Origin: a bacterium
GTDB taxonomy: Bacteria; Bacteroidota; Ignavibacteria; UBA10030
Length of the DNA stretch: 64,000 bases
Direction of reading: 5' to 3'
Assembly (NCBI GenBank): GCA_043803945.1
Contig: JAZDJN010000098.1
Span: 26,947-90,946, forward strand
This document shows, in pieces, positions 4,905-32,717 of this stretch. The position numbers and the translations under genes were made by a program. Each line of letters opens with the position of its first letter. Position 1 is the stretch's first letter. Below the pieces are notes generated by a model, which was not told the origin of the DNA, made no database searches, and saw nothing but the letters and a program-made list of their open reading frames with translations.

Positions 4905-4915
4905 TCAGCGATGTC

Positions 4916-10097: not shown

Positions 10098-10245
10098 CCA
10101 TCGACCCTAGAAGTCTGAGCTGCCGCTAGAGTATTTATACTGGCGGGCAGGAGTGTCTTTGAGGCAGACTTTTCAATCAGGCTTGTTGCTGTTTTTATCT
10201 TGCGTCTATAATTAATTTATTCTACTTTGCTTTTGAAACAAGAAT

Positions 10246-10285
10246 AGCCACCATCCGGGATATTGTGATGATGGCTTTTCTTTTT
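10246..10285 (+). terminator. Terminator-like hairpin in the greA leader (possible attenuator)
   Basis: AGCCACCATC...GATGATGGCT stem then TTTCTTTTT, between a TATAAT box (10207-10212) and the greA start. Confidence 0.5.
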
Positions 10286-10325
10286 GCCTTATCATCATAG
10301 TTTTTTTAGTGAATTTGGAGGTAGA

Positions 10326-10811: not shown

Positions 10812-10868
10812 ATAGTAAGGATTATTCGCACGTTGTAATTCTCTTCATATTCTCATACCGTAACAGAA

Positions 10869-11475: not shown

Positions 11476-11548
<73 letters not shown>

Positions 11549-11632
11549 CTGTCCTGATACTCGCAAGAGTTGAGGGACATCCGACAATCTTCAAAGCAAT
11601 AAGATTGGCGGAAGTACTTCCTCTATGAACTT

Positions 11633-11672
11633 GCCCCGTTGCCAATTTCTCCCACCAGGCAACGGGGTTTTT
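11633..11672 (+). terminator. Intrinsic terminator
   Basis: CCCCGTTGCC...GGCAACGGGG perfect 10-bp stem followed by TTTTT. Confidence 0.7.
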
Positions 11673-11689
11673 ATTCAGAGGAAGCATGG

Positions 11690-11912
11690 TGTGAATGCCA
11701 AGTGCGGAATAGGGAATGCGGGATTATATATTTTGGACCATTGATCCATTGAACCATTAAATCATTGAATTAGTTATCGTTGATCTGTTTATTCCTAACA
11801 ATTCCCCATTCACCATTCGCAATTCCGAATTTCCACAATGCGGAATGTGGAATTTGGTATGCGGAAATCGGTTTAAAGAATTCCGCAATCAACATTTATC
11901 ATTCCAATTTTT
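11690..11912. repeat. Degenerate 7-8-mer simple repeats (AATGCGG/CCGCAAT-like) in both orientations
   Basis: aatgccaagtgcggaatagggaatgcggg; ccattcaccattcgcaattccgaatttccacaatgcggaatgtggaatttggtatgcggaa. Confidence 0.55.
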
Positions 11913-11915
11913 TTT

Positions 11916-11987
11916 GGCGCCGTACCCAAGTGGTAAGGGAGAGGTCTGCAAAACCTTTATGCGGCGGTTCGAATCCGCCCGGCGCCT
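11916..11987 (+). tRNA. tRNA-Cys (GCA)
   Basis: GGCGCCG...CGGCGCC acceptor stem, anticodon loop CTGCAAA, GGTTCGAATCC. Confidence 0.97.
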
Positions 11988-11991
11988 CAAA

Positions 11992-12183
11992 GAAATATGT
12001 AAATGAGGGAATGGGAAAATTGAGGAATTAGATAATTACAATCTAAAGGAAGTCGGGGAGTGAGGAAGAGAAGAACTAGAAATTTCTTCAGGCCTTAACG
12101 ATCATCTCATTCACCCCAACACTTCCACACTTCCACAATCCCACGTTTCCATATTCCTATATTCCCACCTTCCCATATTTCCC
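11992..12183. repeat. Purine-rich and pyrimidine-rich degenerate 8-mer arrays forming a loose inverted pair
   Basis: gggaatgggaaaattgaggaa...ggaagtcggggagtgaggaag versus cacttccacacttccacaatcccacgtttccatattcctatattcccaccttcccatatttccc. Confidence 0.5.
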
Positions 12184-12184
12184 T

Positions 12185-12270
12185 GCCGGGGTGGCGGAAC
12201 TGGTAGACGCACAGGACTTAAAATCCTGTGTCCTGCAAGGGGCGTGCGGGTTCAAGTCCCGCCCTCGGCA
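12185..12270 (+). tRNA. tRNA-Leu (TAA)
   Basis: GCCGGGG...CCTCGGC acceptor stem, anticodon loop CTTAAAA, long variable arm, GGTTCAAGTCC. Confidence 0.97.
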
Positions 12271-12740: not shown

Positions 12741-14240
12741 GTGAGGTTCTTTATGGATATAATTAAGACTTACAGGTTAGCATTCATGATGTTGGCAGCT
12801 CTCTTGCTTACATCCGGCGCCTTCGCACAAGAGGATGAATATAAGAAGTGGCTCAAGAAGGAGCAGGAACAACTCCAGCAATTCAAGGATGCACGGGATA
12901 AGGAATTCACTGATTTTCTAAAACAGCAGTGGAAAGAATTTCAATCCTTTAAGGGAATCGTCCCTGATGACATTCCCAAACCAACCAAGATGCCGATCTT
13001 CAAGCGCACAAAGCCTGAGGTGAGGGACAGCTCAACGAAGAAGGTCGAGATAAAGGAAATTCCTCAGCAGAGAGATCAGGAGGAAGCCACCAAACAACCC
13101 GCTCCGCAACCACAGCCACAACCGGAAGAGAAGAAATCTCAATTCACCATTGATCTGACTTTTTTCGGCGTTCCCATTACTCTACCGCACGACATTGCCA
13201 CCAGGCCAACACTGGCAACCCCCATTAATGAGAAATCGATAAGCGATTTTTGGGCGGCACTGAGCCGTATGAGCTATGAAAGCCTTCTTGCACAAGCGCA
13301 GAATGAAAGAGTCAATCGCAAATTAAACGATTGGGGTTATATCCTGCTTCTCAATCGCATCGGGCGAAGCCTGTTCAACAATGCCCGGAACGAAGCGGTG
13401 CTCTTCGTCTGGTTCATGTTATCAAAATCGGGTTTCGACACTCGACTGGGCTACCAGGGCGATTTTGTTCATCTGCTCCTTCCTACACCTAATATGCTCT
13501 ATCAGGTAAGTTACTTTGAGCTTGGCGGTACGAATCGCTACTACGCTGTGCAGCTTGATCCATCAGATCAACCATTCAAGGGAGCGATCTATACCTACGG
13601 TAAGAAATATCCCGGTGCGGAAAAATCTGCCGATTTTTGCGTCAAGAGTGCACCGTACTTAAAGAATCAGATCAAGGAGCGAACTCTCAAGTTTACCTAT
13701 GGTAGTAAGGAATACACCCTGCAGACAAAGGTGAGCCGAGATGCGGTTGATTTCTTTTGGGAGTACCCACAAACGAATTTTGAGATTTATTTTTCTGCCA
13801 CTCCCTCCAAGGAATTCATGCAATCTCTTCTCAACCAGCTCACACCGTTAGTCGAAGGGAAGACAGAGTGGGATGCCGTGAATATGATTCTCCGTTTTGT
13901 TCAAACGGCCTTCGAGTATAAAACAGATCCCGATCAGTTTGGCAGGGAAAAGCCGCTCTTTCCCGATGAAACAGTATACTATCCCTTCTCAGATTGTGAA
14001 GATCGGGGTATTCTTTTTGCGTATTTGGTGCGAACGCTGTTAGGATTAACAGTTGTCGGCCTCGATTATCCCGGGCACATTGCAACCGCTGTGCTCTTTA
14101 GCACACCGGTGGAAGGGGATTCGATTATATTTCAAGAAAAGCGCTTTACGATCTGCGATCCGACGTACATCAATGCAGATGTGGGAAGATGTATGCCCCA
14201 ATTTAAAGGAGTGAAACCAGAAATTATTATCATTCAATAA
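12741..14240 (+). CDS. Exported protein with C-terminal transglutaminase-like (Cys-His-Asp) domain
   Basis: Signal peptide ending AFA|Q; SDCEDR...YPGHIATAV...CDPTYINA; start may be ATG 12753. Confidence 0.65.
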   Translation: MRFFMDIIKTYRLAFMMLAALLLTSGAFAQEDEYKKWLKKEQEQLQQFKDARDKEFTDFLKQQWKEFQSFKGIVPDDIPKPTKMPIFKRTKPEVRDSSTKKVEIKEIPQQRDQEEATKQPAPQPQPQPEEKKSQFTIDLTFFGVPITLPHDIATRPTLATPINEKSISDFWAALSRMSYESLLAQAQNERVNRKLNDWGYILLLNRIGRSLFNNARNEAVLFVWFMLSKSGFDTRLGYQGDFVHLLLPTPNMLYQVSYFELGGTNRYYAVQLDPSDQPFKGAIYTYGKKYPGAEKSADFCVKSAPYLKNQIKERTLKFTYGSKEYTLQTKVSRDAVDFFWEYPQTNFEIYFSATPSKEFMQSLLNQLTPLVEGKTEWDAVNMILRFVQTAFEYKTDPDQFGREKPLFPDETVYYPFSDCEDRGILFAYLVRTLLGLTVVGLDYPGHIATAVLFSTPVEGDSIIFQEKRFTICDPTYINADVGRCMPQFKGVKPEIIIIQ

Positions 14241-14298
14241 TTCGCTGATTCCTAAATTCACTAATTCTCGTGTCTCATCATCACATATTGGAGGTACC

Positions 14299-14862
14299 AT
14301 GCGAACGCTCAATTATCTTCTCTCTGTTCTCTTTATTGGCATAACAATGATTGGTTGCGCCAGTTCTACTGGTGGTGGAGGAGATGTACCAGATTGGTTT
14401 TTAACTCCCCCTGATGATCCGAATTTCTGGTATGCACCAAATTCCCAGGTGTCCGCGGATATGCAGCTTGCTCTTGATAAAGCCGTCCAGGGCGGTCGAA
14501 CTGAAATAGGCAGGAAGGCCGAAGTGCTTATCCAGGGATTACAGAAGAGGTTTACAGAAGAGACTGGAACCGTGGGTAATTCACAATTGCTCGATATGTT
14601 TACCCAGGCCAGCAAAACTGTGGTGAACACTTCACTTTCTGGTAGTCGTATTGCAAAGCAAAAGATCATGAAAGAAGGAAACGGCTGGCGCGGCTATGCA
14701 CTCGTTGAATACGCTGTTGGTGCTGCAAGGGAAGCAATGATGCAGCAAATAAAGAACAACGAGCAATTGTACACCCGCTTCAGACAGACACAAACCTTCA
14801 AAGAACTCGATGAAGAAGTCAAAAAGTTCGACGAGTTCAAGAAGAATCAGAAACAGCAATAA
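14299..14862 (+). CDS. LPP20-like lipoprotein
   Basis: Lipobox MIGC; VPDWF...LALDKA...GRTEI pattern; GGAGG RBS. Confidence 0.65.
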   Translation: MRTLNYLLSVLFIGITMIGCASSTGGGGDVPDWFLTPPDDPNFWYAPNSQVSADMQLALDKAVQGGRTEIGRKAEVLIQGLQKRFTEETGTVGNSQLLDMFTQASKTVVNTSLSGSRIAKQKIMKEGNGWRGYALVEYAVGAAREAMMQQIKNNEQLYTRFRQTQTFKELDEEVKKFDEFKKNQKQQ

Positions 14863-14871
14863 CATACCGTA

Positions 14872-15609
14872 ATGAAATGGTGTCGTATAGCCATTGCTGC
14901 CGTTATCCAATGTGCTATTCAGACCGCATCCGCACAGGAGTATCCCGCCTGGTTTCTTAACCAGGGGGTACTCAGGTGTGGCAGGACTGTTGTTGGTTTT
15001 GCTAATACTGCGTTTTATAAAGACTCGGCAATCGCATTTGCGCTTCGGAACGGTGCCGAAGATGCTGGACGCATGGCAAAAACCAAGATCCAAGGTGGGC
15101 AGATATATTGGTCTACTGAAGGCGGCACATTCTGGATGGGAGCTGATTTCCGCGAGCAGTTTGACAGTTCTGCTGCCCAGACCGCTCTCACCTCGTTTAC
15201 TCCAATCGATACATTTATTTCCTCCTCCCTCGTTCTTGTTCTCTTTGCTAATGCACCCTGCGAACTTGACGTTGCGCTACGTTCTCATGGACGAATCAAT
15301 GCACGTGCCCCATCGTGGACGGAAACTATTCCCCGCGATACAAATTATCTTTATGCTGTTGGCATTGCACCGGAGTACTATTATGAGATAAGCTCATGGA
15401 GGGAAGCGGAACGAATTGCTCGAAGGAATTTAGCTGGAAATGTTCATATTAAGATTCGAGCTCTGCAGAAATTAACCGCATATGAAGGTCAGGACATTCG
15501 CCATGAGGAGATCTCTGTTACCCTGAAGGATATTCAAGTGGTAGCACGATGGAGAGATCTTGGCAAAAAGATATTCTACGTACTCATTCGAATGCCCAAT
15601 GCACCATGA
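14872..15609 (+). CDS. Exported protein with two LPP20-like segments
   Basis: Signal peptide ASA|Q; YPAWF and APSWTE...YAVG...AERIARRNLA repeats. Confidence 0.55.
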   Translation: MKWCRIAIAAVIQCAIQTASAQEYPAWFLNQGVLRCGRTVVGFANTAFYKDSAIAFALRNGAEDAGRMAKTKIQGGQIYWSTEGGTFWMGADFREQFDSSAAQTALTSFTPIDTFISSSLVLVLFANAPCELDVALRSHGRINARAPSWTETIPRDTNYLYAVGIAPEYYYEISSWREAERIARRNLAGNVHIKIRALQKLTAYEGQDIRHEEISVTLKDIQVVARWRDLGKKIFYVLIRMPNAP

Positions 15610-15626
15610 ATCCATAAGGTGATGCT

Positions 15627-17201
15627 ATGAAAACACTCCCTTTTTTACTCCTCATTCCCATGCTTCTGTTTAGTCAAAGGCCAGACTGGGTAGGTTCAAC
15701 AGGCAAAAGCATACGGTATCCAAATCAACTCTACCTGACAGGGTTTGGACTCTGCAAAGTTAATAAGGAGTTCGATCAGACAAAGAGTATGCAGCGTGCG
15801 TTGAGCGATGCACAAGGAAACCTCATACAAAGCATCAGAGTAAACATTCAAAGCACCGTTGGATCGACGGTGATTGAACGGGAATCAAAAATCTCTTCCT
15901 ACTTCAGTAACGCGACACAATCTTCATCGACAATGGAACTTCAAGGACTGGAGTCGGAAACCTACTACGATGATGACGACGAGGTGTCCCTTGCGCTTGC
16001 CTTTATCTCGCGAAGCAAGACTACTTCTATTTATCGTGAGAAAGAAAAGTCGATCCAGAAAGAAATCCGGCAGCATCTCGATGCTGGAAAACGGTTTGAG
16101 GAGCAGGGTGAGAGGACGAAAGCGCTCAATGAGTACCAGGCATGCTTTCCGTTTTTCTTACAGCTCCAGGAGGCACAGGCTATTATCATGGTGGCAAGCA
16201 CTGCAATTGACAAAGGGATGAATGAGCTCGAAGGTCAAGTCGAGAAGGATGAGGTAAATAAATCGACAGTCCAGGAAGCGATCGATCGTTTAAAAGCAAA
16301 ACCGATCAATTCACCCGAGGATCTTGCTTGGTACCTTGCCGATGGATTACATGAGCAAAGCGATCTGAGATCAGCATCGGTACTGGTGTACCCATTTGTC
16401 TATCAAGACACAAAGATTGGAAGCCCTTTTTCCCGGTACTTCAAAAACGTTCTGGAAAGCAAGTTAGTGGAGGTGGCAAAATGGACACCCGTGCAACAGC
16501 TCGAGGTAGACAAGCCGAGGACGCGGAATATCACGCTGGAGAGCGCCAAAGCCTCCGATGCTGAATATATTGTGAAAGGATCGTACTGGATTCAGGAACG
16601 CGGCATAAAATTAATCGTCTCGCTCCTGCGTATCCAGGATGGAAAAATTGTAGGCAGTGTTGAGAAAGTCGTTAGTGATTCTACGCTTAAAAATACCGGG
16701 CAGAGCCTAATGCCGCCAAATCTTGAACAAGCTCTTGCCGATGAGAAGAAGCTCGCTCAGGGTGAAGAGGCTGGTGCGGGCTTAACTATCGATGTTTGGA
16801 CGAACAGGGGAGCAGAGGATCTCGTCTTCACAAAGGGCGATAGGATGCGTGTGTTTGTGCGTGTAAATCTTCCCTGCTACATCCGCTTCATCTATCATCT
16901 CGCTGATGGAAAGCGTACGGTTCTCGAAAGAAATCACTATATCGACGAATCGAAAGTGAACAAAGAGTATCATTCGCCTCAGTGGGAATTCGAGTGCGAT
17001 GAGCCCTATGGAGTCGAGCGTCTGCAGGTTTTTGCCAGCACTGAGGAGTTCTCTCCGATCGAGACAGAGTACATAAACGGTTATTACTATCTCAAAGAAG
17101 ACCTTGGTGATTTTCTTCTGAAGCAACGCGGGATGAAGAAAGTGAAGAAGGGAGTGATGAATACGGAGGCTCGTTTGGCGGTGACAACAATGGAGAGGTA
17201 G
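15627..17201 (+). CDS. Exported LPP20-like + FlgO/CsgG-like + DUF4384 domain protein
   Basis: RPDWV...YLTGFG N-terminus; VLVYPF...AEYIVKGSY central domain; IDVWTNRG...FTKGDRMRVFVRVN...YIRFIY...EPYGVERLQVFAS C-terminal DUF4384-like domain. Confidence 0.6.
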   Translation: MKTLPFLLLIPMLLFSQRPDWVGSTGKSIRYPNQLYLTGFGLCKVNKEFDQTKSMQRALSDAQGNLIQSIRVNIQSTVGSTVIERESKISSYFSNATQSSSTMELQGLESETYYDDDDEVSLALAFISRSKTTSIYREKEKSIQKEIRQHLDAGKRFEEQGERTKALNEYQACFPFFLQLQEAQAIIMVASTAIDKGMNELEGQVEKDEVNKSTVQEAIDRLKAKPINSPEDLAWYLADGLHEQSDLRSASVLVYPFVYQDTKIGSPFSRYFKNVLESKLVEVAKWTPVQQLEVDKPRTRNITLESAKASDAEYIVKGSYWIQERGIKLIVSLLRIQDGKIVGSVEKVVSDSTLKNTGQSLMPPNLEQALADEKKLAQGEEAGAGLTIDVWTNRGAEDLVFTKGDRMRVFVRVNLPCYIRFIYHLADGKRTVLERNHYIDESKVNKEYHSPQWEFECDEPYGVERLQVFASTEEFSPIETEYINGYYYLKEDLGDFLLKQRGMKKVKKGVMNTEARLAVTTMER

Positions 17202-17242
17202 GATTGTAAGAGTGTGAGAGTGTAAGAGTGTATGAGAGTAAG

Positions 17243-17290
17243 ATCCCCTGAGCGAGCCAGTCATTGGGCGAGTCGAAGGGGAGGGGGAGA
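17243..17290 (+). repeat. Intergenic repeat ATCCCCTGAGCGAGCCAGTC(A/G)TTGGGCGAGTCGAAGGGGAGGG, copy 1
   Basis: Near-identical copies at 26861-26904 and 26924-26971, each just after a stop codon. Confidence 0.85.
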
Positions 17291-17604
17291 ATGGGAGACG
17301 GGGTGAGTGGAAGTAAGAAGTATTAGAGTAGAAAGTAGGAAGTATCTAGATTGCAGGTGGGAGAATGCAGATAGCAGGCGGAAGATTGACGATTGGAAGT
17401 AACCAGGGAATTTGAATATTCCCGAAACGTCCATCTCTATTCACAGAATCGAGATGAGACATCGACCTGTTATATAAAACAGATTTTGTTCAAGCTATCA
17501 ACTATCTCCCCCTTTCCACGGATTCAGATTGAAAAGGGGGAGAGAAGAAGTGGATCTCTAAGGAACGCAACGGAAAAAGTGAAATGGGGAAAAAAGAAAA
17601 GCTC

Positions 17605-17914
17605 TGACTCAATCCCCCAATCGGGGTTGTCTCAAAAGAAAAAACATAGGGCGTCACGAACCACTTCGTGACGCAAAATGCGGATTACATTCAGATTTCA
17701 TGTGTCACGGTGTGCCTGCCCCGTGTTTTTTGCGGGGGACCGTGACACCCTTGGCGTACTTTTTAGTTACCCCCATATATTGGAATGGTCGGTATGATAG
17801 TCTCATCCCACTGTAATAAATCAAAGACTATACTCCCCTTCTCTTGACAAAGAGAAGGGGTGAGCCTGCCCCGCCATTTATCGATCTTAAAATAGAAAGG
17901 CGGGGGGATGAGTC
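17605..17914. mobile_element. Composite MITE-like element (TGACTCA...TGAGTCA shell containing a GGGGTTGTCTCAAAA...TTTTAGTTACCCC element)
   Basis: Termini shared with copies at 23298, 28640, 32301, 33892 and 36745; 17821-17914 nearly identical to 40297-40392. Confidence 0.6.
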
Positions 17915-18008
17915 AGAAAAAAAGAAAGCCACCCATCCCCAACTCTCAAGCTGCGGGAATTTAGCATACAACTATGATAGGCTTTCGACTATAAAAGGAG
18001 AAAGTAAT

Positions 18009-19460
18009 ATGAAAATTACTGCTCTGGCATTTTTGATTCTTATAATCATTTATGCTCATTGCTTTGCTCAACAGAGAGGGATGAAATCCTTTCAGGAGAA
18101 TAATTCTGAGCAGCGCATTGCTCTTGTTATTGGCAACGGTAGTTACCGCGAGGCGCCGCTTGTAAATCCCCCCAATGATGCTCGTGCGATAAGCAGTACT
18201 CTTCGTACGCTTGGATTCACCGTGATCGAAAAGCTCAATGTAAATCAGGAGCAGATGGAAACCGCCATTGGTGATTTTGGTAACCGGCTTAGAAGGGGTG
18301 GTGTCGGGTTGTTTTACTACGCGGGTCACGGCGTGCAGGTTAACGGCCAAAACTTTCTCATCCCGATTGGCGCTGCAATAAACAAAGAGACCGAGGTGAA
18401 GTATAAGGCGGTTGATGCGGGACTTGTGCTTGCGCAGATGGAGGATGCAAGGAACAGGCTAAACATTGTTATTCTCGATGCCTGCAGAGATAATCCTTTC
18501 TCCAGAAGCTGGAGGTCTTCCACGCGTGGTTTGGTAAGCGTTGATGCGCCAAAGGGGACAATCATTTCGTACGCAACTGCACCCGGCAAAGTAGCGAGCG
18601 ACGGTGATAGAGGCAATGGACTCTATACGGAGCGGCTGCTTTATTATATCAAGCAACCCGGATTGGCAATTGAGGAGGTCTTTAAAAATGTTCGGCGCGA
18701 CGTGCAGAGACGGACAAACGAAGCTCAAACACCGTGGGAACAATCATCGCTCACGGGAGATTTTTATTTTGTTGCCGGTACCGGTGAGGCTCCGAAAAAA
18801 CAGCAAGAAATTGTCTCAGAACCTGAGAAGATAACTGCGACTCCCGATTTTGGTGTCGATATGGTGTATGTAGATGGTGGTACATTTACAATGGGGAGTA
18901 ACGATTATGATGATGAAAAACCACCTCATCAAGTTACTGTGCGAAACTTTTCCATTGATAAATATGAAGTGACCGTTGCGAAGTTTAAGCAGTATTGTCA
19001 AGCGACTAACCGATCAATGCCCGCAGCTCCATCGTGGGGTTGGAACGATAATGATCCTGTTGTGAATGTAAGTTGGGAAGATGCAAATGCCTACGCAAAG
19101 TGGGCGGGGAAAAGATTGCCAACTGAAGCGGAGTGGGAATATGCGGCAAGAGGAGGCAACAAGAGCCGTGGATTTAAATATGCCGGAAGTGATGATGAGA
19201 ATACTGTTGCTTGGAATACGAATAATTCTGGTAGCAAAGTACATCCTGTTGGCGGCAAGTATCCAAATGAACTCGGCATCTATGATCTTAGCGGTAATGT
19301 ATGGGAGTGGTGCAGTGATTGGTATGTATCATATCCTTCTGGTTCACAAACGAATCCAACAGGTTCCATTAGTGGCCAGAACCGTGTGTTGCGGGGCGGT
19401 TCGTGGAACGGCGATTCGAGCGTCCTCCGGGCGGCGAATCGCGTCGGGAGCACACCCTGA
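18009..19460 (+). CDS. DGR target 1: signal peptide + caspase-like (C14) protease + FGE-sulfatase/CLec domain; stop/frameshift inside VR1 (corrected end 19509)
   Basis: AAAGGAG RBS then MKITALAFL; YYAGHG...ILDACR dyad; RLPTEAEWEYAARGG, LSGNVWEWC, RVLRGGSW; terminal NGFRCSLDIK lies in the +1 frame. Confidence 0.9.
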   Translation: MKITALAFLILIIIYAHCFAQQRGMKSFQENNSEQRIALVIGNGSYREAPLVNPPNDARAISSTLRTLGFTVIEKLNVNQEQMETAIGDFGNRLRRGGVGLFYYAGHGVQVNGQNFLIPIGAAINKETEVKYKAVDAGLVLAQMEDARNRLNIVILDACRDNPFSRSWRSSTRGLVSVDAPKGTIISYATAPGKVASDGDRGNGLYTERLLYYIKQPGLAIEEVFKNVRRDVQRRTNEAQTPWEQSSLTGDFYFVAGTGEAPKKQQEIVSEPEKITATPDFGVDMVYVDGGTFTMGSNDYDDEKPPHQVTVRNFSIDKYEVTVAKFKQYCQATNRSMPAAPSWGWNDNDPVVNVSWEDANAYAKWAGKRLPTEAEWEYAARGGNKSRGFKYAGSDDENTVAWNTNNSGSKVHPVGGKYPNELGIYDLSGNVWEWCSDWYVSYPSGSQTNPTGSISGQNRVLRGGSWNGDSSVLRAANRVGSTP

Positions 19461-19500
19461 TACCGGACTCTACTATAACGGTTTTCGATGTTCCCTGGAC
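19377..19500 (+). repeat. DGR variable repeat VR1
   Basis: Aligns to TR 20937-21059 with ~22 substitutions at TR adenines, one non-A mismatch, a 1-nt insertion near 19458-19470, and the terminal CTGGAC vs CAGGTC difference. Confidence 0.95.
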
Positions 19501-19550
19501 ATTAAGTAACACTTTTTGCTGTTAGCCTTTTACACTTGGGTCGAATAAAA

Positions 19551-19892
19551 ATGGCTGAAAAAGAGGATGTACTTACCAAGACGTACGATCTGCTTTTATA
19601 CCTTATCCCTCAGCTTGAGAAGTTTCCAAGAGCCCAGAAATTTCTACTTGCTGATCGAATCGAGTTGAAAGTCCTCGATATTTTAGAACGGTTACTTGAG
19701 GCATACTATTCCCCTCCAGATGCTAAGATGGTACCATTAAAGAAAGCAAATATCGAGATTGAGCAATTTCGCTACCTTGTTAGGTTGAGTCATGACCTGG
19801 GTTTCTTGAGTCATCAAAAATATGGTATCCTCAGCGAAAAGATTAACGAAGTCGGAAGAATGGTTGGAGGTTGGATCAAGTCGCTCAAATGA
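19551..19892 (+). CDS. avd: DGR accessory variability determinant (four-helix bundle)
   Basis: KTYDLLLYLIPQLEKFPRAQKFLLADRI...EVGRMVGGWIK; ATGA overlap with the RT gene. Confidence 0.93.
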   Translation: MAEKEDVLTKTYDLLLYLIPQLEKFPRAQKFLLADRIELKVLDILERLLEAYYSPPDAKMVPLKKANIEIEQFRYLVRLSHDLGFLSHQKYGILSEKINEVGRMVGGWIKSLK

Positions 19893-21037
19893 AAACTCAT
19901 AAGAACTTGTATATGAAACTTTGTTCGTTTGAGAATTTACTTCTTGCCTCAAGGAAAGCGAGACTCGGTAAGCGAATGAATACCGATGTCGCTCGATTCG
20001 AGATCAACCTCGAACATGAGCTTGTGAATCTTGCAAAGGATCTCCAGGATCAATCATATCGACCTGGAGAATACCGTGAGTTTATCATCTCTGAGCCAAA
20101 GAAGCGCATGATCAGTGCCGCGCCTTATCGAGATCGAGTGCTTCATCATGCCCTATGCAATGTCATTGAGCCAATCTTTGAGCGCACATTTATCTCAGAT
20201 AGTTATGCTAACCGTAAAGGTAAAGGGACACACAAGGCAATTCTGCGGTACTTGCAATTCGCCCAACACAACACGTATGCCCTGAAATGCGATATACAGA
20301 AGTTCTTCCCAAGCATCGACCATCAACTATTAAAGCAGAACATTCGAAAGAAAGTAGCTTGCAAGAAAACAATCTGGCTTATTGATACTGTTATCGATCA
20401 CAGCAACAGGCAAGAAGCTGTCTTGAATTATTATTCTGGTGACTCGCTGTTTACGCCATTCGAGCGTCGGAAAGGTTTGCCAATTGGGAACCTGACAAGT
20501 CAATTCTTTGCCAATGTCTATCTGAATCCACTGGATCATTTTATTAAGGAAGTACTGCAGTGCAAGCATTATATTCGGTATGTCGATGATTTTGTACTCT
20601 TCAGTGAAGAGAAACAGCAGCTTCAGCGGTGGAAAGAAGAGATAGAGTCATGGTTGGAATCACTGCGGCTAACGCTTCATCCAAAGAAGACGAGAGTGTT
20701 GCCTGTGAATGTTGGACTTTCATTCCTTGGGCATCGAGTTTTCCCGGAATTTCTTTTGCTCAACAAGGATAATGTGCTCCGGTTTAAGAGGCGATTGAAG
20801 AAGATGAGCGCTGGGCTTGTTTCAGGAAATGTTACCATGGAGCATCATCGATCTTCGATTGCTAGCTGGGAGGGGCATGCAAAGTTTTCAAATACCTATC
20901 GTCTTCGAAAAAAGATTTTTAGGGATGGATCCGAATCAGAACCGTGTGTTGCGGGGCGGTTCGTGGAACAACAAAACGAACAACCTCCGGACAACGAATC
21001 GCAACAGGAACACACCCGAAAACCGAAACAACAATAA
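19889..21037 (+). CDS. DGR reverse transcriptase
   Basis: KKRMISAAPYRDRVLHHAL, LKCDIQKFFPSIDH, GLPIGNLTSQFFANVYL (DGR-type), YIRYVDDF; no maturase or endonuclease domain. Confidence 0.96.
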   Translation: MKTHKNLYMKLCSFENLLLASRKARLGKRMNTDVARFEINLEHELVNLAKDLQDQSYRPGEYREFIISEPKKRMISAAPYRDRVLHHALCNVIEPIFERTFISDSYANRKGKGTHKAILRYLQFAQHNTYALKCDIQKFFPSIDHQLLKQNIRKKVACKKTIWLIDTVIDHSNRQEAVLNYYSGDSLFTPFERRKGLPIGNLTSQFFANVYLNPLDHFIKEVLQCKHYIRYVDDFVLFSEEKQQLQRWKEEIESWLESLRLTLHPKKTRVLPVNVGLSFLGHRVFPEFLLLNKDNVLRFKRRLKKMSAGLVSGNVTMEHHRSSIASWEGHAKFSNTYRLRKKIFRDGSESEPCVAGRFVEQQNEQPPDNESQQEHTRKPKQQ

Positions 21038-21059
21038 CGGTTTTCGATGTTCCCAGGTC
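20937..21059 (+). ncRNA. DGR template repeat (TR), overlapping the RT 3' end
   Basis: CAG AAC CGT GTG TTG CGG GGC GGT TCG TGG AAC AAC AAA ACG AAC AAC ... AAC AAC AAT AAC GGT TTT CGA TGT TCC CAG; ~42 adenines by hand count. Confidence 0.95.
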
Positions 21060-21215
21060 TTTCATCAAGCTGTTGCCAGAGCCTTCCTGTCGATCGACAA
21101 GAAGGGAGTGCAGCGGAAAGTCCAGGATCTGTTCCCGTGTTGGTGCAGTCAGCCAACCGAACACAAAGACCAATTCCGGCGCGGTTGGTAGCTTCGGCGA
21201 AGACCGTGCCGGAAT
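21060..21215 (+). ncRNA. Structured spacer downstream of TR (putative 3' part of the DGR RNA)
   Basis: 13-bp stem ATTCCGGCGCGGT/ACCGTGCCGGAAT (21173-21215, one G-U) around TGGTAGCTTCGGCGAAG; second imperfect stem GTGTTGG...CCAACCGAACAC. Confidence 0.6.
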
Positions 21216-21247
21216 GTGGACACTAACAGGATAATCATAGGATTGGA

Positions 21248-23125
21248 ATGATAATGAAATCACTTTGCTATAGTATTCTGGCGAGCATTCTTCTCTTCGG
21301 TAATCTCCACGCTCAAACCGGCAGGGGTATGAAACCGATCTCCATACAAGATGCTACCGGTAAAGAAGTAGCAATCTACTCCGGCAGTTTTGCCCTTATT
21401 ATTGGCATGAGTAATTACAGCCAGGGGTGGCCAAGTCTACCCGGGGTTCAGCGGGATGCTCAGGCAGTCCGCTCAACTCTCGAAACTCAGGGGTTCCGTG
21501 TAGAGGTGAAAATGGATCTGGATAAAGCATCTCTCGATAAAGTAATTTCTGATTTTATCGCCCGGTATGGAGGCGAGCCGGATCATCGCTTACTCTTCTA
21601 TTTTGCCGGTCACGGATATACTGTGAAATCCAGCTACGGTGATGAACTCGGATATTTTGTACCTGTCGATGCACCCCTCCCACGGAAAGATGTTGGGGCC
21701 TTTCAGAGCAAAGCGATGGAGATGGCACAAGTAGAGATCTATGCAAAGCGTATTCAGTCGAAGCATGCTTTCTTTATGTTCGATGCTTGCTTCTCGGGGT
21801 CGCTTTTTGATATTTCTCGCGCTGTTCCCGAGGTCATTTCCTATAAGACATCACAGCCGGTTCGGCAGTTTATCACTTCAGGCACTGCTGAAGAAACGGT
21901 GCCCGATGTGAGTATTTTCCGATCGCAGTTTGAGCGTGCATTGAAAGGTGAGGCAGATACGGATAAGGACGGTTACGTAACGGGAACGGAACTAGGGGAG
22001 TTTCTCCAAAAAACAGTCATCAATTATTCCCGCAGCAGTCAGCATCCGCGATATGGAAAAATCCGCAATCCTAATTTGGACAAAGGAGATTTTGTTTTTA
22101 CACTGGGAAGTACATCTGAGGCATCACCCTCTCCGACAAAGCTTCCAGACAAAACAGATTTTTCCATTGAGAAAGAGAAACGAGAGGCAGAAACTGAGCG
22201 CACGGCACGCGATGCATGGGCAAAGAATCTGAAAGAGATGGAGGGAAAATATAATGAAGTCATCGAATTAGAAAAGACCGATATCTCCGCGCAGCGTAAA
22301 GCAGAGGTGTGGAAGAGGTTCCAGCAGGCGTATGCAGATAATAATCCATATAGCACACGTGATGATGAGCTTCGAACCAAGGCGGGAGAGAAAGTATCCT
22401 TCTGGAATAGAGATGCAAATAAGCCAGCCGAAAAGAAAGCTGCTAAAAAAGAAATATCTTCTCCCGACTTTGGAGCAGATATGGTGTATGTTGATGGTGG
22501 TACGTTTACAATGGGGAGTAACGATTATGATGATGAAAAACCACCGCATCAGGTAACTGTGCGAAACTTTTACATTGATAAATATGAAGTGACTGTTGCG
22601 AAGTTTAAGCAATTTGTGGATGCAACAGGCTATAAGACCGACGCAGAAAATGGAGATGGCAGTTATAAATGGACAGGGTCAACCTATGAGAAGAAAGCGG
22701 GTGTTGATTGGCGCTGTGATGAGCAAGGCAATAGAAGATCCGAAAGTCAGTATAACCATCCGGTCATTCATGTGAGTTGGAACGATGCCAATGCTTATGC
22801 AAGGTGGGCGGGGAAAAGATTGCCAACAGAAGCAGAGTGGGAATTTGCGGCAAGAGGAGGCACCAAGAGTCGTGGATTTAAATATGCCGGAAGTGATGAT
22901 GAGAATAGTGTTGCTTGGAATACAAGTAATTCTGGTGGCAAAGTACATCCTGTTGGCGACAAGTATCCAAATGAACTTGGTATCTATGATATGAGCGGTA
23001 ATGTATGGGAGTGGTGTGCTGATTGGTACGATGCAACTTATTATAGCAACAGCCCTGAGATGAATCCAACTGGCCCAACAAGTGGTACTCTCCGTGTGTT
23101 GCGGGGCGGTTCGTGGGGCTCCTAA
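21248..23125 (+). CDS. DGR target 2: signal peptide + caspase-like protease + helical linker + FGE-sulfatase/CLec domain; TAA and +1 G inside VR2 (corrected end 23219)
   Basis: YFAGHG...FDACFSG; RLPTEAEWEFAARGG, MSGNVWEWC, RVLRGGSW; VR2 continues past the stop to GFRCSLDFR in the shifted frame. Confidence 0.9.
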   Translation: MIMKSLCYSILASILLFGNLHAQTGRGMKPISIQDATGKEVAIYSGSFALIIGMSNYSQGWPSLPGVQRDAQAVRSTLETQGFRVEVKMDLDKASLDKVISDFIARYGGEPDHRLLFYFAGHGYTVKSSYGDELGYFVPVDAPLPRKDVGAFQSKAMEMAQVEIYAKRIQSKHAFFMFDACFSGSLFDISRAVPEVISYKTSQPVRQFITSGTAEETVPDVSIFRSQFERALKGEADTDKDGYVTGTELGEFLQKTVINYSRSSQHPRYGKIRNPNLDKGDFVFTLGSTSEASPSPTKLPDKTDFSIEKEKREAETERTARDAWAKNLKEMEGKYNEVIELEKTDISAQRKAEVWKRFQQAYADNNPYSTRDDELRTKAGEKVSFWNRDANKPAEKKAAKKEISSPDFGADMVYVDGGTFTMGSNDYDDEKPPHQVTVRNFYIDKYEVTVAKFKQFVDATGYKTDAENGDGSYKWTGSTYEKKAGVDWRCDEQGNRRSESQYNHPVIHVSWNDANAYARWAGKRLPTEAEWEFAARGGTKSRGFKYAGSDDENSVAWNTSNSGGKVHPVGDKYPNELGIYDMSGNVWEWCADWYDATYYSNSPEMNPTGPTSGTLRVLRGGSWGS

Positions 23126-23210
23126 GCGGGCTACCTCCGGACCTCGAATCGCGGCAGGATCACACCCGGGTACCGGGACGGCAGTTACGGGTTTTCGCTG
23201 TTCCCTGGAC
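23090..23210 (+). repeat. DGR variable repeat VR2
   Basis: ~27 substitutions versus TR, all at TR adenines (e.g. AAC->GGC/TCC/TAC/ATC/GAC, AAA->TAA), plus one extra G at 23189-23191 and the terminal CTGGAC. Confidence 0.96.
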
Positions 23211-23297
23211 TTTAGATAGCGCTTTTTCCTTTTAGCCTTTTACACTTGGGGGGGATTGTGCGGGGAAATTTTTTTGGGGATGGTAGATGGGAATAGT

Positions 23298-23596
23298 TGA
23301 CTCAACCCCCCTGGCCGGGGCCGTCCAAAAAGAAAAGAACTGTCACACCGGAATGTGCCGCTTTACGGCATCTCGTACTGCGGGACTTCAATCCGGTGTC
23401 CAGTGCCTTATTTAAGCATTTTTCTTGATTCCGGTTAGAAGATTACCGGAATGACAGTGCACTAGTTTTCTTTTTAGACAGCCCCCGGGGGGGATGAGTC
23501 AGATAAAACCAATGCCATTAAGCGTCGAACCGTTCCTTACGCTATAGTCCTCAAGAGAGAGGGAACGGTTCGGTCAAAAGATCTTTCAGAAGGCTG
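23298..23596. mobile_element. Composite MITE-like element with nested TGTCAC...GGAATGACA palindrome and GAACCGTTCC...GGAACGGTTC hairpin
   Basis: GGGGCCGTCCAAAAAG (23317)...CTTTTTAGACAGCCCC (23485) inside TGACTCA...TGAGTCA; colinear with 36745-37143. Confidence 0.7.
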
Positions 23597-23697
23597 AGGT
23601 GTATTTATCTGGATGAACATGCCCGGACCTTCTTACCTCGCTGAAGAAAGACAGGTTATGGAATGAGAAGTTAAGAGAATACATTTAGAGGCCCCAT

Positions 23698-26600
23698 ATG
23701 AAATTCCTTACACACCTAATCGCGCTATTCATAGTTCTCTCTCCATTTGCTCAAGCACAAAAACCGGAGCTGGTAATTCAAACCGGACACACCAACGGGC
23801 TCACTTCGGCAGTATTCAGTCGTGATGAAAAGTATGTACTGACGGGGAGTTGGGACAACACAGCGAAACTCTGGGATGCCTCAACAGGAAGAGAAATAAG
23901 AACATTTGCCGGGCACTCAGAACGCATTTGGTCTGTCGCTATCAGTCCAGATGGACGATATGTAGCGACAGGAAGTTATGACAAGACGGCAAAAATCTGG
24001 GAGACTTCAACGGGAAAAGAACTGAGGGTATTGACTGGTCATAAGGATGAAGTTCACTCCGTTTCTTTCAGTCCCGACGGTCAGTATTTAGCAACGGGCA
24101 GTTGTGACAAGACAGCGAAGCTATGGGAAACCTCAACGGGAAGAGAAGTAAAGTCTTTTACTGGACATTCTGAAGACATTTATTGCTTGGCTTTTAGTCC
24201 AAATGGACAGTATATGGTGACGGGAAGTTTTGACAAGACCGCAAAACTCTGGGAGGTATCAACAGGAAAGGAAATGAAGACATTCACTGGACATTCATCC
24301 TCGATCAATTCTGTCGCATTCAGTCCTAGTGGACGATATGTGGTAACAGGAAGCCGGGATAGCACTGCAAGACTATGGGATGTATCCACGGGGAGAGAAG
24401 TGAAGACATTGGCAAGGATCTCATCGTGGATTAATTCTGTCGCACTTAGTCCTGATGGGATGTATGTGGTGATAGGGAGTTATAATGGAACAATAAAACT
24501 GTATGATATCTCTACTGATCAAGAGGTAAGTTCATTTGCCGGACATCCCCTTTCGGTTACCTCTGTTACTTTCAGTAATAATGGGAAGTACATTCTGTCG
24601 GGGAGTTGGGATAGTAAAGCAAAACTTTGGAAGGCATCAACAGGCAGAGAAGTGATGAAAATTGCAGGACATTCTTCGGAGATTCGTACAGTCGCATTCA
24701 GTTCAGATGGAAGAAATGTGGTAATGGGGAGTGATAGTGTAGCGAAGATTTGGGAAGCCATGACCGGAAGAGGTTTGCGGGGACTATCTAATCATTCTGG
24801 TATCTATTCCGCGGCATTTAGTCAAAATGGGCGGTATGCGGTGACCGGGAGTGTTGTTAGTGGAATAGCGAGAATCTTCGATGTTTCGACGGGAAGAGAG
24901 GTTAGAACATTAACGGGGAAATGGGGCAGCATATATTCCGTAGCCTTCAGCCCCGATGATCAATATGTAGTAACAGGGAGTATGAATGGGAGAGTAAAAC
25001 TCTGGGATGTCTCTACAGGAAAAGAGGAGCGAACATTCATAGGTCATTCTGGCGATGTCGCTGCAGTAGCGTTCAGTCCTGATGGGCAGATGATTTTGGC
25101 GGGGAGCACTCGTGATGTCAAGCTTTGGGATGCATCGACAGGAATAGAAGTGAAAACTTTGAAAGGTCACAGTAGCCTCATTCGCTCAGTTGCATTCAGC
25201 CCCGATGGGAAGGATGTAGTGACTGGAAGCGCAGACAAAACAGCGAAGCTCTGGGATATCTCAACAGGAGCAGAAGTAAAGACTTTGACCGGCCATTCAG
25301 ATTGGGTAAATTCCGTTGTATTCAGTTCTGATGGGCGATATCTGGTGACGGGGAGTTGGGATAAGACTGCGAAACTGTGGGAGGTCTCAACAGGAAAAGA
25401 GGTGAGGACATTCATTGGGAGTTCAGGTGGCATCAATTCTGTGGCCTTCAGTCTGAATGGGAAATATATCGTTGGTGGATGTAAAACTGGCGAGTGCATC
25501 ATTTGGGATTTGCAGACAGGTATAAAGCTTGCCTCAAGAATTGCACTCGATGAAAAGGATTGGGTTGTCGTCACTCCGGATGGCCGCTTCGATGCATCGG
25601 CAAATGGGATGAAGTTGCTCCACTACGTTCAAGGAATGGAAGTCCTCCCTCTCGAATCCTTCTTCGAACAATTCTATACACCTAATCTGTTTGCGCGAGT
25701 TCTCTCAGGAGAGAAGATCGAAACCACACCCACGGTCGATTTCTCCAAAGCCATCAAACTTCCTCCACTCGTAAGGATCGTTTCACCGAAGACAGGAGAG
25801 ACTTTCACTTCAGATCGAGCTCAAATTAGTGTTGAAGTCACCGATCAGGGTGGGGGGATCGATGAAATCCGTCTCTATCACAATGGAAAACTTATCTCAG
25901 AAGATCAGCGGGGGATGAAGGTCATTGAATCGAAGACAACGAAGATCACAAAGACGTTTGATGTCACGCTCCTACCGGGCATCAACGAGTTTAAAATCAC
26001 AGCCTTCAATATGGAGAGAACCGAATCAGTCCCGGTGTCTCTTTCAATCGAGCTTACGGCAACGGAAGCTTCAGCAGAACTCTACATACTTGCGATTGGC
26101 ATCAATCAGTACAAGAACTCAGTGCTCAACCTCAACTATGGAAGGCCGGATGCAGAAGCATTCTTGCAGGTTGCTGAAAGGAAAGCACGGGGAATATTCA
26201 GAGCGATCAAGAAATATGAAGTCTACGATCAACAAGCAACAAAGGTAAACATCGAAGGCATCTTGACACAGATCATTCAGCTTTCAAAGCCGCAGGATGT
26301 ATTTCTGTTTTTCTATGCCGGTCATGGAGTGATGAGCGAAGGCGATGCCGCGTTGAAACCGGATTTCTATCTTATTCCGAGCGATATCACTCAGCTCTAT
26401 GGGAACGATCGACAGTTAGTCGCTAAGGGAATCTCTGCATCGTTGCTGAAAGAGCATTGCACGAACATGCGAGCACAGAAGCAACTGGTAGTCATCGATG
26501 CCTGTCAGGCTGGAGGTGCAGTGGAGACGTTTGCGATGCGGGGAGCTGCGGAGCAGAAAGCGATGGCGCAGTTGGCAAGAGCGACAGGAGTTGTCATACT

Positions 26601-26853
26601 GGCAGCGACGGGCACAGAGCAGTTTGCGACAGAGTTCAAGCAATTGGGTCACGGAGTGTTTACCTATGCGTTACTGCAAGGACTCGAAGGAGAAGCCGAT
26701 GGAAGTCCAAAGGATGGAAAGGTTACGGTGGCAGAGCTGAGAGCGTATCTTGACGATCAAATACCTGAGCTGACGAAGAAGTATAGAGGGCAGGCGCAAT
26801 ATCCAGTCGCATATTCAAGAGGAAATGATTTTCCTGTAAGCGCTGGAAGATGA
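23698..26853 (+). CDS. Exported WD40-repeat (about 14 blades) + Ig-like + caspase-like (C14) protein
   Basis: Signal peptide AQA|QKPELVIQTGH; GH...FSPDG...TGS.D.TAKLWD repeats; DQGGGIDEIRLY; FYAGHG...DACQAG. Confidence 0.9.
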   Translation: MKFLTHLIALFIVLSPFAQAQKPELVIQTGHTNGLTSAVFSRDEKYVLTGSWDNTAKLWDASTGREIRTFAGHSERIWSVAISPDGRYVATGSYDKTAKIWETSTGKELRVLTGHKDEVHSVSFSPDGQYLATGSCDKTAKLWETSTGREVKSFTGHSEDIYCLAFSPNGQYMVTGSFDKTAKLWEVSTGKEMKTFTGHSSSINSVAFSPSGRYVVTGSRDSTARLWDVSTGREVKTLARISSWINSVALSPDGMYVVIGSYNGTIKLYDISTDQEVSSFAGHPLSVTSVTFSNNGKYILSGSWDSKAKLWKASTGREVMKIAGHSSEIRTVAFSSDGRNVVMGSDSVAKIWEAMTGRGLRGLSNHSGIYSAAFSQNGRYAVTGSVVSGIARIFDVSTGREVRTLTGKWGSIYSVAFSPDDQYVVTGSMNGRVKLWDVSTGKEERTFIGHSGDVAAVAFSPDGQMILAGSTRDVKLWDASTGIEVKTLKGHSSLIRSVAFSPDGKDVVTGSADKTAKLWDISTGAEVKTLTGHSDWVNSVVFSSDGRYLVTGSWDKTAKLWEVSTGKEVRTFIGSSGGINSVAFSLNGKYIVGGCKTGECIIWDLQTGIKLASRIALDEKDWVVVTPDGRFDASANGMKLLHYVQGMEVLPLESFFEQFYTPNLFARVLSGEKIETTPTVDFSKAIKLPPLVRIVSPKTGETFTSDRAQISVEVTDQGGGIDEIRLYHNGKLISEDQRGMKVIESKTTKITKTFDVTLLPGINEFKITAFNMERTESVPVSLSIELTATEASAELYILAIGINQYKNSVLNLNYGRPDAEAFLQVAERKARGIFRAIKKYEVYDQQATKVNIEGILTQIIQLSKPQDVFLFFYAGHGVMSEGDAALKPDFYLIPSDITQLYGNDRQLVAKGISASLLKEHCTNMRAQKQLVVIDACQAGGAVETFAMRGAAEQKAMAQLARATGVVILAATGTEQFATEFKQLGHGVFTYALLQGLEGEADGSPKDGKVTVAELRAYLDDQIPELTKKYRGQAQYPVAYSRGNDFPVSAGR

Positions 26854-27745: not shown

Positions 27746-28621
27746 GTGAGGAAGCACAGAATATTGAGAACAGTATTTCAATACATTCTCATGCTTGTGA
27801 TCTGCAAACCAGTATTTTCTCAAGATGTTCATAGCGGCAAGAACGCTGCTGAATCCAACCGAATCAATGCTGGCAGCGAGATGGTTCTTGTTGAAGGTGG
27901 GACATTCACGATGGGAAGCAACGAAGGAAACTCCGATGAGAAACCGGCTCATCAAGTTACAGTGAGCAGTTTTTATATCGATAAGTATGAAGTAACGGTA
28001 GCACAGTTTAAACAATTTGTAGATGTCACGGGATATAACACCGATGCTGAAAAAAGCGATGGAAGTAACATATGGACAGGGTCGACTTGGGAGAAGAAGG
28101 CGGGCGTCAACTGGCGGTGTGACGAGCGAGGGAAAAGAAGGCCGGTAAGTCAGTACAACTATCCAGTGATCCATGTCAGTTGGAACGATGCAGCGGCGTT
28201 TGCTGCATGGGCCGGAAAGCGTTTGCCGACGGAAGCTGAGTGGGAGTTTGCAGCAAAAGGTGGCAGGCAAAGTAAACGGTATAAATATAGCGGTGGAGAT
28301 AATCCTGATGCAGTCGGGTGGCTTGATATAAATAGCGGTTGGAAAATACATCCACCAGGACAGAAACAACCAGATGAGCTTGGCATTTATGATATGTCCG
28401 GAAATGTATTTGAGTGGTGCAGCGATTGGTATGATGGGAAGTACTATAGCACGAGTCCAAAACAAAATCCTCATGGACCACTCTCCGGCCAATTTCGTGT
28501 TCTACGGGGTGGTTCGTGGGTCATCGACTTGGACGCTGTTCGGCCTACCTACCGCAACGGTGCAACGCCCGAAGATCGGAGCGGTGATTTCGGGTTTCGA
28601 TGTGCGAAGGCGGTGAAATAG
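27746..28621 (+). CDS. Exported stand-alone FGE-sulfatase/CLec-fold protein (paralog of the DGR target domain)
   Basis: Signal peptide; GGTFTMGS, YPVIHVSWNDA, RLPTEAEWEFAA, RVLRGGSW...GFRCAK; shares the KKAGVNWRCDE insert with target 2. Confidence 0.88.
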   Translation: MRKHRILRTVFQYILMLVICKPVFSQDVHSGKNAAESNRINAGSEMVLVEGGTFTMGSNEGNSDEKPAHQVTVSSFYIDKYEVTVAQFKQFVDVTGYNTDAEKSDGSNIWTGSTWEKKAGVNWRCDERGKRRPVSQYNYPVIHVSWNDAAAFAAWAGKRLPTEAEWEFAAKGGRQSKRYKYSGGDNPDAVGWLDINSGWKIHPPGQKQPDELGIYDMSGNVFEWCSDWYDGKYYSTSPKQNPHGPLSGQFRVLRGGSWVIDLDAVRPTYRNGATPEDRSGDFGFRCAKAVK

Positions 28622-32690: not shown

Positions 32691-32717
32691 ATATTGCGTA
32701 TAGAACCGACAAACATT

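Follow-up and report, generated by a model that had tools for sequence, protein, structure and literature searches.

Does the region at positions 18009-23250 of the contig stretch analysed here encode a retroelement that rewrites the binding surface of exported caspase-like proteases, and are the proteins that it rewrites intact? The stretch, referred to below as the window, covers 64,000 nt of a draft genome from an uncultured bacterium of the Ignavibacteria type (GenBank assembly GCA_043803945.1, contig JAZDJN010000098.1). All coordinates are positions in the window unless another locus is named, and all genes of the region lie on the + strand, in the order target 1, avd, reverse transcriptase (RT), template repeat (TR) and target 2. 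The region is a genuine chromosomal diversity-generating retroelement (DGR), in which a compact avd-RT-TR cassette sits between two paralogous target genes. Taken as a whole, we hold it very likely that this DGR diversifies two exported proteases, each made of a caspase-like Peptidase_C14 (C14) domain and a C-type lectin (CLec) domain, and that both of its variable regions (VRs) carry lesions.

The avd-RT-TR cassette is complete

The accessory gene avd (19551-19892 in the list of open reading frames (ORFs), the frame being open from 19536) matched both Pfam bAvd (PF22296, 71.5 bits for a cut-off of 40) and NCBIfam DivGenRetAVD (NF033474, 103.4 bits for a cut-off of 80). Its stop codon overlaps the start of the RT gene as ATGA. 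The RT gene (19889-21037) encodes an RVT_1 domain (E=2e-28 in the Pfam scan), and LTSQ and YVDD strings are visible in its translation; we take these strings to be typical of DGR RTs. In a scan with NCBIfam-type models, the protein did not reach the cut-off of any group II intron, retron or Drt model. The conserved part of the RT extends to about position 20920, and the tail of the ORF enters the TR in a different frame.

Repeat finding and alignment revealed a unit of about 120 nt present in three copies, VR1, TR and VR2, which share exact stretches of at least 25 nt, all within 4 kb. The TR (approximately 20936-21058) is in frame and of canonical length, and no part of the cassette (avd, RT, TR) departs from the open, canonical form. 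Every component listed in a preliminary description of the locus, namely avd, the RT, the TR and two VRs, was found. The same holds for the arrangement that it proposed, one template for two targets flanking the cassette: VR1 lies upstream, VR2 lies downstream and both are copies of the TR. The DGR had also been called complete, which is correct for the cassette; the two targets, as assembled, are cut short inside their VRs. Following established DGR biology, the TR RNA would be reverse-transcribed by RT-Avd with random misincorporation opposite adenines, and the resulting cDNA would replace the VRs, guided by VR-specific 3' sequence.

Substitutions in both variable regions are enriched at template adenines

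Alignment to the TR placed VR1 at 19382-19499 and VR2 at 23092-23209. Substitutions were counted over a 111-nt stretch of the TR (20942-21052) containing 38 A and 73 non-A positions. VR1 was substituted at 21-22 of the 38 A sites and at a single non-A position, and VR2 at 24 A sites and none of the 73 others; one inserted base was found in each. A Fisher test of adenine enrichment over 117 nt gave p = 2.8e-11 for VR1 and p = 1.6e-14 for VR2, the longer stretch taking in bases proximal to the initiation of mutagenic homing (IMH) site, with two differences common to both VRs. This formal test bears out the concentration of mismatches at TR adenines. The earlier figure of about 22 such substitutions in VR1 proved exact (21-22 A sites plus one non-A position); for VR2, their confinement to TR adenines stands, and the figure of about 27 was slightly high.

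The 3' ends of the repeats also distinguish template from targets. Both VRs contain the VR-type IMH CCCTGGAC, whereas the TR contains CCCAGGTC, and the VRs share a further tail of about 45 nt from which the TR diverges. In the three-way alignment of this repeat family (D7), the segments following the VRs (19480-19540 and 23190-23250, + strand) were 87% identical to each other and were not shared with the TR.

No third VR matching the TR was found across the whole draft genome (5.54 Mb in 118 contigs). A third C14-CLec paralogue is encoded at G000:C16:127485-129218 on the - strand, partly within locus L004, as a 609-aa open frame 54-56% identical to target 1. It was considered as a third VR and rejected; its 3' end, although homologous to the TR, shows differences at non-A positions and has no VR-type IMH. 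Two further genes with an FGE-sulfatase domain are present in the window (27746-28621 and 34227-36215), one short and one fused to fn3, neither of which matches the TR.

The targets combine a caspase-like protease with a variable lectin fold

Target 1 (18009-19460, 483 aa as assembled) comprises a signal-like N-terminus (residues ~1-20), a Peptidase_C14 domain (~18114-18767) and an FGE-sulfatase/CLec domain (~18858-19451), and is terminated by a TGA within VR1. A start at 17844 is possible for its ORF, but the one that yields the signal-like sequence is the ATG at 18009. Target 2 (21248-23125, 625 aa as assembled) has the same overall plan, with a signal-like sequence (residues ~1-22), Peptidase_C14 (~21389-21997), a linker of about 150 aa and FGE-sulfatase/CLec (~22475-23119), and ends at a TAA inside VR2. 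Both domains scored above Pfam cut-offs in both targets. For Peptidase_C14 (clan CD; PF00656, cut-off 21.4 bits) we obtained E=1.4e-39 (136.6 bits) with target 1 and E=8e-19 (68.6 bits) with target 2; the corresponding values for PF03781, E=7e-57 and E=7e-65, agree with the terminal FGE-sulfatase/CLec domain first described for each protein.

The first ~1400-1850 nt of the two target genes are open and the catalytic motifs are intact, AGHG and DAC being present in both proteins. The protease of target 1 aligned with the paracaspase MALT1 (E=3.9e-18) across YYAGHG and LDACR (LDxCR), motifs to which we assign the catalytic residues, presumably as in MALT1. Among 30 aligned family members, D-A-C-R and the flanking Gly of G-H-G were invariant and the His column was at least 90% conserved, and the GHG and DxC columns were invariant in five proteins of the target 2 type (T2-type). 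The intact caspase-like dyad of the preliminary description is supported by these alignments, as far as sequence can tell. An EF-hand-like loop (DxDxDG...E) lies past the protease core in target 2 (residues ~235-255) and in proteins of loci L086 and L095 (10301-12217). The Pfam EF-hand_1 match to the target 2 loop was under the cut-off (E=0.0039), and the loop hints at possible Ca2+ control of T2-type proteins. Orthocaspases are described as Arg/Lys-specific in the available text of PMC6426788, and because of this precedent the target proteases are probably also Arg/Lys-directed.

Target 1 was modelled as assembled with AlphaFold2 (mean pLDDT 81.7), and the model matched the folds of MALT1 (TM 0.80 to 3v4o_A), FGE and TvpA. 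By sequence, the lectin-fold part matched FGE (1.6e-31) and TvpA (2y3c, 7e-27). The VR starts directly past RVLRGGS, where FGE has a Cys-containing segment in the FGE alignment; we assume that these cysteines serve in the active-site segment of FGE. Over the aligned CLec part the targets share 67% identity, over the protease parts 28%, and the lectin-fold part of target 2 has a 27-residue insertion relative to target 1. The proposal that two different protease modules share one template is correct.

All 12 proteins examined for export signals had a signal-like N-terminus. They comprised 11 C14-CLec proteins (both targets and nine relatives) and the WD40-C14 protein encoded downstream of target 2. 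Each N-terminus began with a short basic n-region that led into 12 or more hydrophobic residues (mean hydropathy 2.4-3.3 over 12 residues) and then into a small-residue site, after which Q was frequent. The model of target 1 shows a helix at residues 2-21 and disorder from 21 to 32. Signal peptides, proposed for both targets in the preliminary description, are therefore predicted by hydropathy and motif as well. A homodimer prediction for the C14 domain of target 1 scored 0.10 for a mark of 0.42, which counts neither for nor against dimerisation.

If exported, the products would act in the periplasm or on the cell surface. Their variable lectin tip would lend an Arg/Lys-type cysteine protease a binding specificity that can change, and ligand binding could bring the protease to the ligand or switch it on. 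It is reasonable to suppose that a hypervariable receptor is wired to an extracytoplasmic protease.

Related loci contain intact versions of the same arrangement

RTs encoded at 80 loci share 45-60% identity with that of the window. These loci come from many phyla, among them KSB1, Bacteroidota, Poribacteria, Marinimicrobia, Chloroflexota, Planctomycetota and Crocosphaera. Adenine-biased repeat pairs were found in 58 of these 80 loci, and in at least 12 of the 80 the RT is preceded by one VR and the TR followed by another, as in the window. The Pfam scan of candidate target ORFs covered 73 of 74, one 92-aa edge fragment being excluded. FGE-sulfatase was present in 69 of the 73, and most carry NACHT/STAND domains. 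Peptidase_C14 was present in four: both targets of L048 and the single C14-CLec targets of L036 and L086.

Judged by its predicted genes, L048, from the metagenome-assembled genome of an uncultured bacterium, is the closest analogue of the window, with both target frames intact. Its RT is 50% identical, two signal-bearing C14-CLec targets flank the cassette and a DUF4384 protein adjoins; unlike the window, the cassette has the order RT-avd-TR. The two L048 targets (4254-6281 and 8979-10961) have an identical VR peptide, with the same 22 differences from the TR, which suggests gene conversion, a very recent duplication or assembly collapse. On a second locus, the metagenome contig L097, an RT 52% identical is accompanied by three tandem C14-CLec targets with VRs, all open and with signal-like N-termini, and by five DUF4384 proteins nearby; here the targets lie about 4.7 kb from the TR. 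In both L048 and L097 the VRs have the length of the TR and the ORFs stop 4-16 nt past the VR, unlike those of the window.

When metagenomes were scanned with target 1, 80 loci were returned; both domains were matched in 7 of them, including L097 and L095. L095 contains a gene like target 1 and a gene like target 2, separated by 2.7 kb; neither an RT nor a TR lies within 13 kb of them. Of the 119 other matches listed for target 1 in the protein database, 64 contain both C14 and FGE-sulfatase. Related genomes also contain matches to target 1, with C14 and CLec in G030 and with a C14 match in a frame long enough for both domains in G014.

Both variable regions are interrupted

Between fixed anchors the TR measures 97 nt, and VR1 and VR2 measure 98 nt each. 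In VR1 the stop is a TGA at 19458-19460 and the extra base lies somewhere in 19458-19469; if it is placed at 19458, a single inserted T is the only lesion and creates CCC-TGA. Three-frame translation of the out-of-frame 3' remnant of target 1 (19461-19509, + strand) gave ...NGFRC... in the +1 frame, with a stop at 19507-19509. In VR2 the stop is a TAA at 23123-23125 facing an AAA codon of the TR (an A-to-T change), and the extra G belongs to the run at 23189-23191; translation in the GFRC frame would end at a stop at 23217-23219. Target 1 ends 17 codons short of its own end and target 2 about 31, leaving the GFRC codons out of frame; homologues end in ...GFR(L/C)... in the family alignments. 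A reading of the VR1 TGA as selenocysteine was rejected, the frame beyond it missing the conserved end and meeting a second stop. Reading one base forward at CCC-TGA (19455-19460) gives the full conserved C-terminus of target 1, up to the stop at 19507-19509.

The TR is in frame through ...GFRC and has 24 residues between W and GFRC, the same spacing as in related TRs, for example that of L018, which makes the VRs the aberrant copies. The inserted bases of VR1 and VR2 map to different TR positions, which excludes a simple deletion in the TR. The alternative that the TR lost one base and that the VRs are original is refuted by these two observations together. Of the TR codons, only AAA can become a stop through adenine changes. 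In the TRs of 50 relatives, stop-prone codons (AAA, AAG and AGA) make up 10 of 1885, spread over 7 TRs.

Open frames of 1051-1093 aa elsewhere in the window are uninterrupted, which indicates that the indels are specific to the VRs. No lesion extends beyond TR-homologous sequence, so a single new round of homing could erase them. We think it probable that the lesions exist in real molecules, as unselected or "off" products of mutagenesis or as early decay. Interrupted VRs beside an intact template, with a stop at the lone stop-prone template codon and single-base insertions, may illustrate what happens to DGR targets when mutagenesis goes wrong.

The locus lies within a module of predicted exported caspase, LPP20 and DUF4384 proteins

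Four genes for predicted exported proteins or lipoproteins lie upstream of target 1 (12741-17201, + strand) and form a module with orthologous counterparts in genomes G032 and G009. They encode a 499-aa protein (12741-14240), an LPP20-like protein (14299-14862), an LPP20 protein (14872-15609) and an LPP20+DUF4384 protein (15627-17201), the last three assigned by Pfam. The family of the 499-aa protein had no Pfam or NCBIfam match; the Atlas gave unnamed clusters, with PF04473 on 23% of one cluster. A transglutaminase-like identity was considered for this protein from its C/H/D pattern and set aside as unproven.

Directly 3' of target 2, a WD40-Big_7-Peptidase_C14 protein (23698-26853, + strand) is assigned by Pfam, and is predicted to be exported by N-terminal hydropathy. 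Three more proteins of this architecture are encoded in the window (47297-50578, 52935-56123 and 59099-62314), and with the two targets the Peptidase_C14 proteins of the window number six. The first of the four WD40-Big_7 proteins, the only one examined for export, has the signal-like N-terminus. The window is rich in exported PEGA, fn3-FGE, WD40 and TPR proteins.

Orthologues of the DUF4384 gene were found in 8 of 40 related genomes. The same module genes surround a Big_7-C14 caspase in G032 (L184, 2938-10110), and three module genes are adjacent in G009 (L187, 5612-9797); no DGR or C14-CLec gene lies beside the module genes in either genome. DUF4384 proteins adjoin C14-CLec genes in L095, L097 and L048, and two weak matches were obtained in the 76 other RT loci. 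Sequences from the window, L095 and L097 went into the DUF4384 profile, which leaves L048 as the only independent match. A full-text literature search for DUF4384 returned passing mentions and no title devoted to its function.

The targets would probably act together with the neighbouring exported LPP20/DUF4384 lipoproteins and the WD40-caspase. A more far-reaching scenario, which we put forward as a speculation and regard as improbable, would make the C14-CLec targets the changeable sensor arm of an envelope caspase module composed of the LPP20-like, DUF4384, 499-aa and WD40-caspase proteins. The DGR would furnish an adaptive set of binding specificities in the periplasm or at the surface, and these would trigger or direct caspase-type proteolysis aimed at invaders, for instance phage parts or imported toxins. 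The AAA codon of the TR would be a built-in off switch, VR2 and perhaps VR1 would be off-variants, and the CCC-TGA of VR1 could still give some full-length product through a +1 slip of the ribosome. Under this off-switch scenario, roughly one homing event in 12 would silence a target, as estimated from the substitution frequencies. If a hypervariable binding domain does feed the module, what the module senses or attacks could be read from the ligands selected in natural VR populations.

Several other features of the window were noted. An intergenic repeat with a 16-nt core occurs in five copies where 0.06 are expected, at 17603 (- strand), 17902, 23488, 32484 and 34021. About 100 nt, with an internal inverted repeat, are common to the copies at ~23426-23576 and ~33959-34109, which resemble repetitive extragenic palindromes or miniature inverted-repeat transposable elements (REP/MITE). 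Copies bracket the block of target 1, DGR and target 2, and likewise an AAA_14/DUF4143 gene (32694-33848); a gene of the AAA_14/DUF4143 family also sits between the two C14-CLec genes of L095. The Rfam scan of the whole window found three tRNAs only (11476-12270), just upstream of the exported-protein module. A recent foreign origin was considered and rejected, the GC content being flat across the window (0.42-0.50) with no island signal. A promoter and terminator scan of 17100-23800 gave counts no higher than in shuffled sequences.

Weighing of the alternative explanations

A number of observations weigh against the interpretation that this DGR diversifies two exported proteases. Each VR holds an in-frame stop and one extra base, so that neither target reaches the conserved GFRC end as assembled; being truncated inside their VRs, neither has a complete lectin fold. 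The candidate VRs of related loci (n=74) are nearly all of TR length, with ORFs stopping 0-25 nt past the VR, and out-of-frame length differences or early stops affect four of them (in L022, L046 and L088). Two of two is therefore unusual and could mean decay. No hairpin or cruciform 3' of VR1 or VR2 rose above shuffled sequence (z = -0.11 and +1.20), and export is assigned by a heuristic of hydropathy and motif. The RT is sporadic: at E<=1e-30 it was not found in 24 genomes of the same family, and it was found in 2 of 16 of the same order. C14-CLec proteins occur in same-family genomes without the RT, which indicates that the family does not depend on the DGR; the DGR has become attached to a pre-existing family of predicted exported proteins.

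The lesions themselves could be artefacts of assembling a heterogeneous VR population, real cells then having intact targets. The genome is a draft of 118 contigs, three repeats with exact shared stretches of at least 25 nt are crowded into 4 kb, and one insertion falls in a G run. Moreover, two indels within about 236 nt of VR, set beside frames of 1051-1093 aa without interruption, have the VR specificity that heterogeneity predicts. Mixing variants of equal length would not by itself make indels, however, and the TAA needs only a plausible real A-to-T change; we give this explanation a substantial chance, although one short of even. We consider it unlikely that both targets are pseudogenes in a decaying locus that makes no working variable protease. 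Decay would account for a stop and a frameshift in each VR where only 4 of 74 related VRs are broken, the intact non-VR paralogue at G000:C16 (609-aa frame) could cover the function, and Trichodesmium IMS101 offers a precedent for an inactivated DGR (PMC4143802, from the available text). Yet avd, RT and TR are open and canonical, the first ~1400-1850 nt of the target genes are open with intact catalytic motifs, every lesion falls within the stretch overwritten by homing, and the VR2 stop is a typical product of adenine mutagenesis.

The role of the variable proteins can also be read differently, as adhesins or nutrient-capture proteins and not as sensors or defence proteins: the tip would bind environmental polymers or prey surfaces, and the C14 domain would process them or release the protein. 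That the catalytic dyad is strictly conserved in the family implies that proteolysis matters, and the association with the LPP20/DUF4384/caspase module points to a dedicated envelope pathway more than to plain adhesion. The adhesin explanation draws instead on the classical exported DGR targets, which are binding proteins, with TvpA among the closest solved CLec structures, and on the abundance of exported PEGA, fn3-FGE, WD40 and TPR proteins in the window. It also accords with the absence from these targets of a fused STAND/NACHT or other recognised defence domain, unlike most targets of related RTs, and with the PADLOC output, which consisted of generic caspase and RT matches only. On balance we find it rather doubtful. 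The interpretation as a DGR that diversifies two exported caspase-like/CLec proteases, with lesions in both VRs, is the one that we retain.

Comparison with known systems

The novelty implied by the preliminary description does not hold: caspase-CLec DGR targets were in print by 2014 and 2020, the domain fusion was catalogued in 2012, and intact look-alikes exist in L048 and L097. Asplund-Samuelsson et al. 2012 (PMC3501461) reported a fusion of metacaspase and FGE-sulfatase in 33 of 671 bacterial metacaspases. The available text of that survey also describes metacaspase-WD40 fusions, as found in the neighbours of the DGR, and reads N-terminal helices as possible signal peptides; unlike our analysis, it treats the FGE domain as an enzyme and makes no DGR link. 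A caspase-domain DGR target, Tery_2077 of Trichodesmium erythraeum IMS101, was described in 2014 (PMC4143802), followed in 2020 by cyanobacterial orthocaspase-CLec variable proteins, in a report where most variable proteins are predicted to be cytosolic (PMC7517822). As presented in the available parts of these two papers, the cyanobacterial proteins share with the window an N-terminal Peptidase_C14 domain, a C-terminal FGE-sulfatase/CLec domain with the VR at its tip, and one TR for several targets. The window differs in its Ignavibacteria-type host and in predicted Sec-type N-termini, where the cyanobacterial variable proteins are mostly predicted to be cytosolic (PMC7517822). In the literature searched we found no exported C14-CLec DGR targets outside cyanobacteria and no LPP20/DUF4384 link; exported orthocaspase cases may stand in the localisation table of PMC7517822.

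DGRs that diversify putative antigen sensors in multicellular bacteria provide a further comparison. Those described for Thiohalocapsa PB-PSB1 include CHAT/TIR-CLec targets as well as periplasmic CLec domains (PMC10907252), and FGS/DGR links to caspase-bearing conflict systems have been discussed (PMC7159879, PMC8195603). Going by the accessible portions of these three reports, such systems resemble the window in having CLec targets fused or adjacent to effectors, including CHAT or caspase-like peptidases, in the predicted periplasmic location of some of them, and in duplicated flanking targets. Pfam scans of the window locus found no STAND NTPase, MoxR-vWA or adaptor domain, unlike those systems.

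Collectively, the comparisons indicate that the window locus is a real DGR of an already known design, whose interrupted VRs and envelope-module context are the sole points beyond the ordinary. It leaves the current understanding of DGRs unchanged. It widens the known range of DGRs that rewrite the tips of caspase-like proteins from cyanobacteria to an Ignavibacteria-type genome and, through related loci, to several other phyla, all with predicted exported products.

Among solved structures, the two halves of the targets have different counterparts. TvpA of Treponema denticola (PDB 2y3c) is likewise an exported DGR target with a CLec/FGE fold (E=7e-27 by sequence, E=2.7e-13 by fold) and a VR at its C-terminal tip, but is without a protease domain. 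MALT1 (PDB 3v4o and others) is the closest solved relative of the target 1 protease, with aligned GHG and DxCR motifs and a TM of 0.80. Unlike the targets, it is eukaryotic, cytosolic and activated in a signalling complex, and the likeness says nothing on how the bacterial proteins are regulated.

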